Positions 14,201-56,880 of a stretch of 57,050 nt of DNA are shown in pieces. The stretch comes from Reclinomonas americana ATCC 50394 (lineage: Eukaryota): contig PS015031.1 of NCBI GenBank assembly GCA_048213135.1, positions 6,114 through 63,163 of the forward strand, read 5' to 3'. How positions within the stretch are numbered: the first letter of the stretch is position 1; the number at the start of each line of letters is the position of its first letter. Below the pieces are notes generated by a model, which worked only from the letters and a program-made list of their open reading frames with translations, had not been told where the DNA came from and did not search any database. The position numbers and the translations under genes were made by a program.

Positions 14201-16012
14201 GTGCACGACGAGGTGCCATCGCCCACCTTCAGCCACGTGGCGCCTGCCAGTGGTGCAGAGACGGCAGTGCGTCCGAGTGCGCCTTCGAGCGCTACGTTGT
14301 CGCCCAGCGATGCAGTGCAAGCGCTTGATCGAGAGCGCAGCAAGAACCGGCAGCGACAGCGTGAGCTCATCGGCGACCTCGCCTTCTCACCACCGGCCTC
14401 GCCACGCTCCGTGGTCACCCAACTCATTGCGGCCACTGCTGCGGCCGACACTGCTGCTGCAGCGACCGGTCGTGCCGCTGATTCACCGCTGCGGTCACCG
14501 CGCGACAATCAGCGGGTGCCGATGCTCCATGAAGGGTCGCCTGGCGAGGCCACCACTCGCTCACCGTCGTCGCCCTCGCGTCTCGCCACGCAGGATTTTG
14601 GCGGCCTGGTGCGCGCCTTTGCCGATCTCGTCACACGGAATCGTCGCACACTGGAGACGGTGGATCGAATGGCGGATAAGAAGGACCGAGGAAAGGCGAG
14701 AGATGTCACACAAGAGGGATGAGGAAGGTCAATTGTGCTGAATCGATGCTGTGTGCTGTGTGCAGGTGATCATGATTGTCGATCGATCGCTGGCCGACAT
14801 GGAACGCCTGCTGGTGGTGATTCGCGAGTTGCAAGATGAGCTGCGGTTCACGGAGATTGTCACCGAGCGTTCACGACAACACTCGGCCCAACATGTGGCG
14901 CTCCTGCAGTTTTGTTTTGTCGTGCACGGCTGCACTCGTGTTCTCGCACGCTTTTGACCGTATCTCGCAGAGAGGAGCTCCGCAACAAGGATGCAATTTT
15001 GAAGGACATGGACCAGCAGTGTGTGCTGGCAGTGGAGAGCATTGGCAGGCTGCGGGAGAGCGAGAAGCAGGTTTGTTGGTGGACGAAAGATAGTTGATGC
15101 GCCTGATACTCACCTGGTGTGCAGCTGATGCAACGGGCGTCGGAGAGGGAGCGCGAGGTGGAGCAGACGCGCCGCGACATCACGGACGTGCGACGAGCGT
15201 TGGACATTGAGCGACAGCGGTGTCGCGAGCTGACTGAGGTGATGGCCTCGGTGGAGCGTGTAACTGTGACGCAGAGTGCGTTTTGGCGTGACACGCAGCA
15301 GCGTGTGGAGGAGAAGGTCAACCAGATTGTGGAGAACGGAGCGCGCGTGGTCGATCGGGCAGCGGAAGTCGAGAAGCTGCGCCACGAGATCCGCCAACTG
15401 AACGAGGAATTGAGGTCGGTCAACGCCGAGCTGGCGGGCACCGAGCGGAAACTCGCCGACGTCAATGCGATGGTGGTGGAGAGCCAGCAGGTGCTCAAGG
15501 ATGAGCGGCTGGAAAAGCAGCAGCTCACACTGGTGCGTTGAGATTGAGCGGGGAGGGGAGGATGGTGGGAATGGATGGCTGAGCTGAGGCGCACAGAAAT
15601 TGCGTCAGCTGGATGGTCGTGTGCGCAGTCTGGAGGCCGAGTCCACGATGTTGCGCTCGGAGAATGCGCAGCTGCGGCAGTTTGCGACCAAGGAAAAGCA
15701 GCGCAAGTTTGATCTGGAACAGCAGCTGAAGGAGCAGTTGCGCGTGTGGGTGGCGGTGAGGGATTTGTGTGCGAAACGGTACTTATCGTTCGTTTGCGCA
15801 TGACAGACAAGACGAAATCGTGAGCACGACGGAGGCACTCTTCCACGCGGTGCAGGGATATGCAGATGTTGCGTGAGGGAGGGTGGTGGTGGTTTTACGA
15901 GGTCGTTCATGAAGTCACTTATGATGCAACACAGGTGCCGCTCGTACAAGTGGTCAAGGAGTTCCTGCATGTGCGGAGATCGCTTGAGCGTGAGCATGCG
16001 ACGGTGCACTGA
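11242..16012 (+). CDS. RNI-like leucine-rich-repeat protein with Pro/Ser-rich linker and C-terminal coiled coil
   Basis: Exon 1 MSEEVQRYRSAVEQFTE; exon 2 lies on the flipped contig (12371-12065, LYKSACVTL...LEIPRNHIG) and joins in phase to GNEGTVALCTVLRSNTT (13160 onward). LRR motifs LxxLxLxxNxxG; coiled-coil exons 14766-15750; last exon VPLVQVVKEF..TVH*. Confidence 0.75.
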
Positions 16013-16625
16013 GTGGCGGTGCATGAGGCGAGTGTATGATGAGATAATGATTTTTGAGGACGATTCGTTGGGATAGGGATAGAAGTCCAAGCGTGCTGGA
16101 ACGTGCGCAGGACATGGTGCACTGAGTGATGAGAAGTGGATGAATCGCATATGGGGCGAAGGAGGCAATAGGTCAAACGGCCGCAGAGTGCGAAGCTTGC
16201 ACGTGAGCGGCGTCACCAAGACGTAGTACACTCAGACGAATAGCAACGGCGCGGATAGGAGTGCAAAAAGGTTGCTGGAGCCGAGTGGAAGTGTGGCGAG
16301 TGAAGCATTGAGGTGATGGGCTATAATGTGGCGACGTCTAAGTGGTAAAGCATACTGAAACGTGCGCAGGTGCGTGGGCCACAGTGCACGGAGTGCTGCA
16401 CTTGTCATGAATGACGAATGCATGATCAAGACATACCCACTCGGAAAAGGCATGTGCAAAGTCGGTAAGGCGTGATCTTTGCTTTGTGACGAGTAATCAT
16501 TCAAATGATGGACGACGACCATGTGGCGACACCAAGACGTTGTACACTCAGAAGAATAACAGGGGAGGCGTCGAACGGTGACAAACGGGGCAGAAGGCCC
16601 TTCCTACACGGTCACTACGTCCCGT

Positions 16626-55312: not shown

Positions 55313-55432
55313 CGCACTTGGCGAAACTGGCACTGTGAGCTGGACAACTTTCGACGTTTGTCGACGTCGGTGAACGCACGTTTTCTGCGGATGTCTGCTT
55401 GTTGGAGGCACAACTTCATCGTCCAGCTTCAC

Positions 55433-56880
55433 TCAAATCTTCAACCCCGACGTGCAGTCACCAGTCGTCGCACACGCCGTCACCGTCGACGTGGCCACCA
55501 CACCACTCTTTGGCACACACTGCTTGGTCGACGCAGTGAATGTCCACGAGCCGCACGCAGTCAGCTGGGAGCACCACAGCGAGCAGGCTTGTGGTCCGGT
55601 TGTTGTCTTGATGGCCCACGAGAGGTCGCCACCAGGTCGGTCTGCATGCCAACGGGCCACATCAGTCACGATTCTCTTTCATCTCTCTTCTCGAAAACAT
55701 CCTCACCCGTGCTGGTCTGGAAGCCGCTGCTGTCGTACGCCGCCGCACTCGTCTTGCGTCCCGACACCAGGCAGAAGTGCGTGCCACACACGTTGCTGGT
55801 CTCTGCATTCGCGGCTGTCGCCGGTACGGTGCTCTGCATGCAATAAACGAAGCAGTGAGTTTGCCATATCCACACAATCCCTTTCTCAACTCCAACCACG
55901 TGCCTTCAGTGTGCACACACTTACTCCAAGAGTGTTGGATGCCGCCGCAGCATCCAGGAAAGTCCACGATCGACACTGGGAGTTCCGATCGCACAGTTCG
56001 CAGCAGGCAATCTCACTGCGAGCAGTGACAAGTGACCCCAAGATCGTGCCGCCGGGTCGATCCACTGCCTCGAACAGGCACACTTCCAACGCCGCTGCTC
56101 GACATGCCGAAGAGTGAGACAGCAGAAGATGGTGCATGCGGTAAGAAATCAACGCAACGAGCCACAACTCCATTCTGCACCGTTCCGCAACCGGTATTCG
56201 ATGCTGCGCACGCACCCAGATCATCGTCAGTGCCATACACTACCAGGCAATTCACAAAGGACAGACATACAGAGAGAGAGAGAGAGAGAGAGAGCGAGGG
56301 AGGGAGACGAGTATGTGAGCACGTCTCCGCTGTCAGGCAAACATCCAGAGTAGCCAACGGTGCCAACAACATGGAAAAGCGGGCATGAACGATACGCTAA
56401 TGTTCCCGCTCTCAGCTGCGCACTAAAGAGTGCAAGAACCAACAAGTGTGCTGCACTTCATCATGTTGCACTCTCTCCCCATCACCCATCAGCCTCAGCA
56501 TCACAAACTTCTCCACTCGTCTCATTCCATCGCTACCCTTGGCGCTCGTCCTCCTTCCCCTTCCTGTCTCTCACTCCTCCCTCCCTTCCCCATTCACGCA
56601 CCGTAGACAATCATGAACTGCTTGGTGTACGTCAGCGTGCCATCGCTCACTTGCACAAACACTTGCAGTCGCCGACTCAGCGGCGGCGCCAGCGAGATAG
56701 TCAGCTGATTACCACCCACGATGGTGAACAGAGCAGCATGTACGCCGCCCGCAATGCTGAATGTCGGCGTCTGCCCCGTGTTGAGATCCACCATGCTCAG
56801 GGTGCCCACTGTGAATGGCACCGTCGCACTCGAGTACGTCTGCGCGCCCGACAGCAGAATGTCGCTCGGGCCAACAGTCC
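55433..56880 (-). CDS. Extracellular protein, 3' part: cadherin-like Ig domain followed by two PAN/apple domains
   Basis: PSDILLS..VGTLSMVD..TFSIAGG..FTIVGGNQL..VQVSDGTLTYTKQFMI; DRPGG...CCELCDRNSQCRSWTF and DRPGGDL...CSLWCSQLTACGSWTF....CVPK. Confidence 0.7.

Follow-up and report, generated by a model that had tools for sequence, protein, structure and literature searches.

A GTTGCGT donor class that follows non-G exon ends in Reclinomonas americana, consistent with a U1 register shifted by one base

Analysis of a window of 57,050 nucleotides from Reclinomonas americana ATCC 50394 (the whole stretch of DNA studied here) demonstrated a class of introns whose 5' splice site reads GTTGCGT, and whose use depends on the last base of the preceding exon (position -1). 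The window is rich in introns, and its usual donor signal is of the GTGCGT type. The reading we favour, and hold to be modestly probable, is that the class consists of true U2-type GT-AG introns, with cleavage exactly before GTTGCGT, and forms a second routine donor class on which U1 pairs in a register shifted by one base. Shifted-register donor recognition has so far been a rare exception in human genes. If this reading is correct, it would operate here as a second code in regular use, with the last base of the exon as its switch, and would offer a natural system for studying both the uncoupling of U1 binding from the cleavage site and the handling by U6 of a displaced GU-distal element. A gene finder trained on one donor matrix alone will wrongly annotate a large proportion of the genes of this genome.

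The initial annotation had listed 12 introns beginning with GTTGCG. The hexamer was present on the expected strand at all 12 positions, extending to GTTGCGT at 11 and to GTTGCGC at 28251, and the GTTACG variant that it had mentioned was confirmed at 35566 (+). The list was likely incomplete, with three further members at 15737 (+), 10379 (-) and 10104 (-). The resulting 16 class introns and two comparators are given below; introns are referred to by donor position and a slash marks a splice junction.

34110..34220, minus strand, CWC27/CYP57-like gene, intron 1: CTA/GTTGCGTG...ACAG/ACA, phase 0, 111 nt
31494..31559, minus strand, CWC27-like gene, C-terminal part: AAA/GTTGCGTG...CGCAG/AA, phase 1, 66 nt
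28191..28251, minus strand, THOC1: GCA/GTTGCGCG...CTCAG/CA, phase 0, 61 nt
26298..26364, minus strand, THOC1: CGA/GTTGCGTC...CGCAG/AC, phase 0, 67 nt
36752..36818, plus strand, class-V aminotransferase: TAC/GTTGCGTA...TTCAG/CC, phase 0, 67 nt
35566..35634, plus strand, class-V aminotransferase, variant member: CAA/GTTACGGC...CGCAG/GT, phase 0, 69 nt
40759..40836, plus strand, LRR gene: CCT/GTTGCGTT...CTCAG/AT, phase 1, 78 nt
41510..41572, plus strand, LRR gene: CTT/GTTGCGTA...CGCAG/AT, phase 1, 63 nt
42730..42795, plus strand, LRR gene: AAT/GTTGCGTG...CACAG/TT, phase 0, 66 nt
18534..18600, minus strand, FCaBP/calflagin-like gene, first intron: ACA/GTTGCGTT...TACAG/TT, phase 1, 67 nt
15868..15934, plus strand, intron: GAT/GTTGCGTG...CACAG/GT, phase 0, 67 nt
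15737..15806, plus strand, extra member directly upstream of the 15868 exon: GCA/GTTGCGCG, 70 nt
53688..53755, minus strand, intron: AGA/GTTGCGTG...ATGCAG/CT, phase 1, 68 nt
56098..56158, minus strand, intron upstream of a PAN-domain exon: CTC/GTTGCGTT...TCGAG/, phase 1, 61 nt
10306..10379, minus strand, extra member: CGA/GTTGCGTT, phase 2, 74 nt
10045..10104, minus strand, extra member: CAA/GTTGCGTC, phase 2, 60 nt
36591..36653, plus strand, comparator with an ordinary donor: CTG/GTGCGTGC
40921..40999, plus strand, comparator, GC-AG intron at the LRR repeat position: CAG/GCGCGTGG

All 16 class introns begin with GT and end with AG. In each of them an alignment read by eye placed a branch-point-like motif, CTNA[CT], no more than about 50 nt from the 3' end, in a pyrimidine-rich 3' part as in U2-type introns. 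The U12-type donor /[AG]TATCCTT was found in none of the 16, each of which reads GTT[G/A]CG. Acceptors for the 12 originally listed sites were picked from 3' signals alone, 61-111 nt downstream. Excision of the resulting GT..AG introns left at least one open frame in every case, with 20-50 open codons on each side (counted up to 50), in agreement with the phase fit first described. Scoring of 3' signals by hexamer was dominated by GT and CT repeats internal to introns.

Protein relatives were used as queries for a spliced aligner that had no donor motif score, and sites were counted per relative. Homologues placed introns at 34220, 28251, 26364, 36752 and 35566, to which internal repeats added 40759 and 41510. 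In the CWC27-like gene, the 34220 donor was chosen by 4/4 relatives and, in a larger run, by 28/30, with the junction EPL/TKG aligned ungapped. Of 120 relatives, 113 have T as the residue directly after this junction, which indicates cleavage before the G of GTTGCGT; sliding the boundary by one base would give Ala and was rejected. At 31559, in the C-terminal part, homology was too weak to decide, and the intron was identified from frames open on both sides and the supervised gene model. Among THOC1 relatives, 28251 was selected by 19/32 and 24/32 under two aligner settings, and 26364 by 24/32 with KDR/TFLW ungapped, although under a heavier intron penalty the latter site fell below the 20 % line for listing. 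The aminotransferase donor at 36752 gained a plurality of 10/30 relatives, rising to 16/30 with a raised intron penalty, against 3/30 and 4/30 for rival donors at 36743 and 36757. The variant at 35566 likewise had a plurality (10/30, or 13/30 with the raised penalty; rival 35560, 6/30), and the ordinary comparator donor at 36591 was chosen by 27/30 and 28/30. The LRR gene provided internal evidence: four successive units share an intron at the same place and phase, two with T/GTTGCGT (40759 and 41510, both picked by the donor-agnostic aligner) and two with G/GT- or G/GC-type donors, namely G/GCGCGT and G/GTGAGG.

The remaining members were supported by gene models, open frames and splicing signals. 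A model running from ATG to stop with seven introns backs 18600, where the intron follows the ATG and 12 codons and a later exon matches Pfam FCaBP_EF-hand. Read-through at 15868 meets a stop after two codons, while splicing leaves 36 + 25 open codons, and excision at 15737 links ...EQQLKEQ in frame to QDEIVSTTEALFHAVQGY. The 42730 intron has at least 50 open codons per side and a branch-like CTCAC motif. The 53755 intron is the last in an ATG-to-stop model at 53428-55066, where the 68-nt acceptor choice (53688) fits better than a 78-nt choice, and 56158 is flanked by at least 50 open codons on either side with a PAN_4 match downstream. Both 10379 and 10104 fall within an ATG-to-stop model at 9870-10639, with frames open on both sides of 10379.

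The class is frequent. Only 63 of the 6693 GT sites in the window read GTTGCG, so the homology-chosen GTTGCG donors are not attributable to chance. A donor model with independent positions predicts 0.58 such donors among the 20 supported by homology, of which seven were observed, and 0.90 among all 46 catalogued donors, of which 15 were observed. Across both strands GTTGCGT occurred 25 times against 9.5 expected under a third-order Markov model (2.6-fold enrichment). The class made up 7/28 introns in the four best-modelled genes and 12/60 in the supervised gene model, the latter taken from its first pass only, as self-training lowered its recovery of reference introns from 20/21 to 15/21. Of the introns modelled in the window, roughly 20 % to one third belong to the class; these donors are real and frequent, and the earlier estimate of one in eight was probably too low.

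As first proposed, the class word looks like the local consensus, GTGCGT, lengthened by a single T: G-T-T-G-C-G-T compared with GT[G/A][A/C]GT in other donors. Ordinary donors here follow the pattern GT or GC, then GCG, then T or C, GC-AG introns included (GCGCGT, GCACGT). The class is not, though, the entire ordinary repertoire slid by one base. Position +5 is C in 16/16 class members, compared with A at the corresponding +4 in 13/30 ordinary donors, and GTTGAGT was not enriched (8 seen, 6.7 expected).

The exon-final base was never G at the 12 original sites (A at six, T at four, C at two), as had been reported. The predicted anticorrelation with -1G was also recovered across the 46 catalogued donors: G preceded 0/16 GTT[G/A]CG donors and 25/30 others, the second count being inflated by tier-2 ordinary donors drawn from a model that rewards -1G. 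The homology-supported subset gave 0/8 and 10/12, respectively (p=7e-4). Ordinary donors were used after 5/21 non-G exon ends (T/GTGAGT twice, A/GTGCGT twice and C/GTCTTC once). The seven exon-final codons before phase-0 class introns were CTA, GCA, CGA, CAA, TAC, GAT and AAT. Four of these end in A, compared with 7 % A at third positions overall (p=7e-4), and none in G, compared with 44 % (p=0.018); CTA itself accounts for just 2 of 218 Leu codons. This excess of A over codon usage makes the -1 base appear to be selected, as expected if the A is read as position -2 of AG/GU.

We infer the pairing register itself from these class statistics. Under a one-base shift, the local U1-binding word (A)G/GUGCGU would be displaced one base into the intron to give (A)/GUUGCGU. 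The first G of the intron would take the place of the usual exon-final G, the U at +2 would face the U1 base that usually pairs with G+1, and UGCGU at +3 to +7 would pair as ordinary +2 to +6 do. U1 would then sit out of register by one base, with cleavage remaining at the sole GU. An exon ending in G could take the ordinary form and gain one pair, which would account for the restriction of GTTGCGT to exons ending in A, T or C. A simple count of base pairs gives no account of why non-G/GUUGCGU (one pair, a mismatch, then five pairs) should be preferred over non-G/GUGCGU (six contiguous pairs). A tentative but reasonable extension is that U1 recognizes one fixed word, (A)G[G/U]UGCGU, cut at the GU inside it, so that a single recognition register would serve, genome-wide, two cleavage positions set by the last base of the exon. 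Were this so, the choice would be strong enough to keep rare A-ending codons at exon ends, and the constant C would predict a U1 with G replacing the pseudouridine opposite +4. No snRNA genes, U1 and U6 included, were found in the window by Rfam search, either at gathering thresholds or at E<=1, and no tRNA genes were found there.

A dedicated or altered U1, either a second paralogue or the sole U1, with full complementarity to GUUGCGU at its 5' end, would instead make the pairing canonical and co-evolved. We think this unlikely but worth keeping in view. The constant C at +5 is not favoured by standard U1, and the available text of bioRxiv 10.1101/2022.06.08.495308 describes co-evolved U1/donor pairs in Entamoeba and Mastigamoeba. 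A perfect match to GUUGCGU, however, would leave the lack of -1G unexplained, and the same source, in the part available, has Mamiellales pairing GYGCGY donors with a standard U1.

The initial annotation had left the choice between shifted and bulged pairing open. In a bulged arrangement U1 would keep its normal register at -1, +1 and +2, one U of +2/+3 would bulge out, and GCGU at +4 to +7 would pair as +3 to +6. In its favour, inserting one T into GTGCGT yields exactly the motif, and single-nucleotide bulges at +2/+3 have been validated experimentally in human cells, according to the accessible portion of PMC4856993. An exon-final G would still pair in this arrangement, though, and should be at least as common as at ordinary donors, the opposite of the counts above; nor does a bulge predict the excess of third-position A at -1. 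The statistics thus favour the one-base shift, and we judge the bulge quite unlikely.

It is very improbable that the class reflects chance motifs or mis-modelled boundaries, with the true donors elsewhere or the cut one base downstream (NG/TT...AGN/). Five of the 12 sites (15868, 31559, 42730, 53755 and 56158) were placed from open frames and signals only, and 56158 has a GAG rather than CAG acceptor and an in-frame alternative donor, G/GTTGCGG, at 56191. Codon-usage and Markov Viterbi gene finders with no donor model gave fragmentary models and recovered 5-6/11 reference introns. Even so, GTTGCG was the commonest intron start for these finders (6 of 44-60), and at the homology-supported loci the donor-agnostic alignments chose precisely the class sites; the conserved T after 34220 and the enrichment of GTTGCGT count against this reading too. 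A local frame-compatibility test was underpowered (only 82/6693 GT sites passed) and gave 4/4 for GTTGCGT, 1/3 for ordinary donors and 32/82 for all GT sites. A mobile 'introner' family inserting after non-G bases with its own 5' end is scarcely credible and was rejected: lengths are uniform (60-78 nt in 15/16), but ordinary introns are equally long, and with a mean column identity of 27 % and only GTTGCGT and (C)AG common to all, the 16 are not copies of one element.

The shifted-register reading has its closest counterpart in the human +1 shifted-register 5' splice sites (Roca and Krainer 2009, via PMC4856993), which, in the excerpted account, start with GUU and then continue with the remaining consensus, delayed by one base. 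The class introns share with them the GUU start, the lack of an exon-final G (0/16), the consensus displaced by one base after GU, and the cut at GU. As far as that account extends, the human sites are rare, noncanonical registers of all validated types making up about 1.5 % of human 5' splice sites, unlike the share seen here; the downstream word there is AAGU and here GCGU, and here the -1 base appears selected. The register here is proposed from sequence statistics. The class also resembles bulge +2/+3 sites (Roca et al. 2012, via the same partial source) in having one extra U near +2/+3, but those sites keep their exon-side pairs. Entamoeba (donor GUUUGUU, U1 AACAAAC) and Mastigamoeba (donor GUACGU, U1 ACGUAC) likewise have lineage-specific donor words, carrying T at +3 or C at +4, to which a changed U1 may correspond. 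In the available part of bioRxiv 10.1101/2022.06.08.495308, each of these has one near-universal donor, in contrast to the two coexisting classes chosen by the last base of the exon here. The Mamiellales GYGCGY donors, described in that text without a slid GTTGCG class, resemble our ordinary class, and diplonemid donors, (G)/GTATG in the portion of PMC12621601 available, are unlike GTTGCGT. A whole-word literature search for GTTGCG(T)/GUUGCG(U) returned no splicing paper among the matches listed, and a search on shifted-register U1 splice sites in protists no account of the class among those listed. A metagenome scan for close relatives gave 68 loci, but these were all distant: even the best matching segments were short, with 37-88 % identity.

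Two further donor words that had been considered related to the class, GTTCGT and GTTTGT, proved to be a separate case. In our models they followed G (GTTCGT twice, GTTTGT once) and kept CGT or TGT at +4 to +6, which makes them donors in the ordinary register whose +3 base is T.

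Sixteen introns of the window were assigned to a class that begins GTTGCG(T), including a GTTACG variant at 35566, and follows an exon-final (-1) base other than G. The 57,050 bases are eukaryotic, rich in GC and interrupted by 22 assembly gaps, and a search of the window for tRNA and snRNA genes with the threshold relaxed to E<=1 found none. Gene identities were obtained by running Pfam on long open frames, and the LRR gene was read by hand:

about 31.0-34.3 kb (-), CWC27/CYP57-type cyclophilin (Pfam)
about 25.4-29.9 kb (-), THOC1 (Pfam)
35.0-37.0 kb (+), class-V aminotransferase (Pfam)
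16.6-18.6 kb (-), FCaBP/calflagin-like EF-hand protein (Pfam)
53.4-56.4 kb (-), DUSP/BACK and PAN-domain genes (Pfam)
40436-43540 (+), LRR protein (hand-read)

The GTTGCG donors proposed in the initial annotation were present at 12 of 12 coordinates and on the expected strand (15868, 36752, 40759, 41510 and 42730, +; 18600, 26364, 28251, 31559, 34220, 53755 and 56158, -), and their exon ends were non-G as claimed, with A at six, T at four and C at two. Acceptors were picked by 3' signals only (acceptor matrix, CTNA[CT] branch-like motif, intron composition and length), giving introns of 61-111 nt in which at least one phase kept both flanks open at each site. All 16 class introns ended in AG, preceded by C in 15, and reading the alignment by eye showed a CTNA[CT] motif close to the 3' end of every one. 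Inspection of all 63 GTTGCG occurrences in the window revealed three more resembling donors, at 15737 (+), 10379 (-) and 10104 (-), the last two within one ATG-to-stop model. Nine of the 63 follow G, and none of these has intron-like flanks except 56191.

Support from related proteins came from a spliced protein-to-DNA aligner in which every GT or GC was an allowed donor, every AG an allowed acceptor, and the donor motif was left unscored. With CWC27 relatives the first intron ran from 34220 to 34110 in 4/4 runs and then in 28/30 of a larger set, with an ungapped junction. THOC1 relatives placed introns at 28251 (19/32, and 24/32 in a second run) and 26364 (24/32; below the 20% listing line under a heavier intron penalty), the gene's two most consistent junctions. 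Aminotransferase relatives chose 36752 as the plurality donor in two runs (10/30 and 16/30) and likewise the GTTACG at 35566, which had been proposed as a related donor (10/30 and 13/30). In the same runs the ordinary donors of that gene, with a slash marking the exon/intron border, scored 29/30 (G/GCACGT), 30/30 (T/GTGAGT), 28/30 (G/GTGAGT), 28/30 (G/GTGCGT) and 18/30 (T/GTGAGT). Since GTTGCG makes up only 63 of the 6693 GT sites in the window, its repeated choice by a motif-blind aligner is not due to chance. Four successive repeat units of the LRR gene carry an intron at an identical codon position and phase, beginning T/GTTGCGT twice and G/GCGCGT and G/GTGAGG once each, and the calflagin-like gene has an ATG-to-stop model with seven introns, the first of which begins A/GTTGCGT. 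For 15868, 31559, 42730, 53755 and 56158 the support consists of open reading on both flanks, 3' signals and prediction by the supervised model (a gene finder with donor matrices). The weakest site is 56158: its acceptor is GAG, and another donor that keeps the frame, G/GTTGCGG, lies 33 nt upstream at 56191. This donor and the C/GTTGCGT at 56158 (both -) share one acceptor and may be alternatives; 56191, if a donor, would be the only class member after G.

Donor statistics were drawn from a catalogue of 46 donors, which over-represents the class as its members were sought out: tier 1 (n=20) rests on homologues, LRR repeats or the calflagin gene, and tier 2 (n=26) on hand-read or supervised models. 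The predicted anticorrelation with -1G held in tier 1, with G before 0/8 GTT[G/A]CG donors versus 10/12 others (Fisher p=7e-4). Across all donors it was 0/16 versus 25/30 (Fisher p=2e-8), a comparison inflated because tier-2 ordinary donors were found by a matrix rewarding -1G; the matrix for GTT donors used no exon positions. A position-independent donor model predicted 0.58 GTTGCG donors in tier 1 and 0.90 overall, versus 7 and 15 seen. For GTTGCGT itself a third-order Markov model predicts 9.5 copies in the window and 25 are present, and GTTGAGT showed no enrichment there (8 seen, 6.7 expected). The class logo reads G T T G C G T, and that of other donors G T [G13 A9 C5] [A13 C11 T5] G T. 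As C occupies +5 in 16/16 class donors, the class matches the ordinary word only in its GCGT form. Three donors with T at +3 that keep CGT or TGT at +4 to +6 (17005, 43173 and 17277) all follow G. Class donors account for 16 of the 21 non-G exon ends in the catalogue. The switch on the -1 base is a strong tendency with exceptions, as shown by four strong ordinary donors after non-G at 35900 and 36897 (+) and 16700 and 54529 (-), two T/GTGAGTG and two A/GTGCGT.

The exon-final base itself appears to be under selection. Over about 2000 codons of the genes with better support, A fills 7% of third positions and G 44%. The exon-final codons before the seven class introns in phase 0 are CTA, GCA, CGA, CAA, TAC, GAT and AAT, so that four end in A (p=7e-4) and none in G (p=0.018); CTA represents only 2/218 Leu codons. 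For four of them there is a synonym ending in G that is the more usual choice, so the exon-final A is probably retained because it belongs to the splice signal.

When (A)G/GUGCGU is aligned with (A)/GUUGCGU, seven of the eight positions are identical, from which we infer that U1 pairs one base into the intron, the same +1 displacement as is described for rare human sites (PMC4856993). The first intron G would stand in for the exon-final G, and the exon A for -2. The invariant C suggests a predicted U1 adapted to GUGCGU and unable to afford a second mismatch. The alternative, a bulged +2/+3 register that loops out one U and keeps the exon-side pairs, is also described there (PMC4856993), but the absence of -1G and the selection of A at -1 both favour the shifted register. 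Moving both intron boundaries one base downstream would also keep the frame; at 34220 this would put Ala in place of Thr as the first residue past the junction, and it was rejected as 113/120 CWC27 relatives have T there and four have A. A mobile-element origin was excluded, the 16 introns being alike only at their ends. A literature search found no publication on a GTTGCG-type motif in a splicing context and, among the papers listed, none whose entry describes such a donor class in a protist. The closest descriptions are the human noncanonical registers (PMC4856993) and the U1/donor pairs that co-evolved in Entamoeba and Mastigamoeba (bioRxiv 10.1101/2022.06.08.495308), the latter source also giving Mamiellales donors as GYGCGY.

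The class constitutes 7/28 introns of the four best-modelled genes (LRR 3/9, aminotransferase 2/9, calflagin-like 1/7, CWC27 N-terminal part 1/3) and GTTGCG starts 12/60 introns predicted by the supervised model, so the earlier estimate of one in eight is likely low. GC-AG introns also seem frequent, at 4/46 catalogued donors (GCGCGT, GCACGT and two GCAAGT), the human figure being about 0.9% (PMC4856993):

40921 (+), GC-AG donor
35431 (+), GC-AG donor, backed by 29/30 homologues
518 (-), GC-AG donor
52082 (+), GC-AG donor

Several other features of the window were observed. In the LRR (RNI-like) gene (40436-43540, +) the repeats are followed by a proline-rich region of ~300 residues and then, at the C-terminus, a short basic tail, and an upstream exon with donor A/GTTGCGC at 40376 may precede the ATG used. 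Intron 2 of the calflagin-like gene (17512-18422, -) spans 911 nt, versus the usual 60-120 nt, and holds several repeats with a unit of ~120 nt. An 896-codon open frame at 1675-4362 (-) with a Sortilin/VPS10 Pfam match has no obvious introns, which is unusual compared with the 7-9 introns of other genes in the window. A large inverted duplication (20276-21512 versus 22648-23874) comprises three arm pairs that adjoin one another (533, 167 and 500 nt), with 97-99% complementarity and a centre of ~1.1 kb between the arms; it lies next to assembly gaps and could be either a genuine palindrome or an artefact of assembly.
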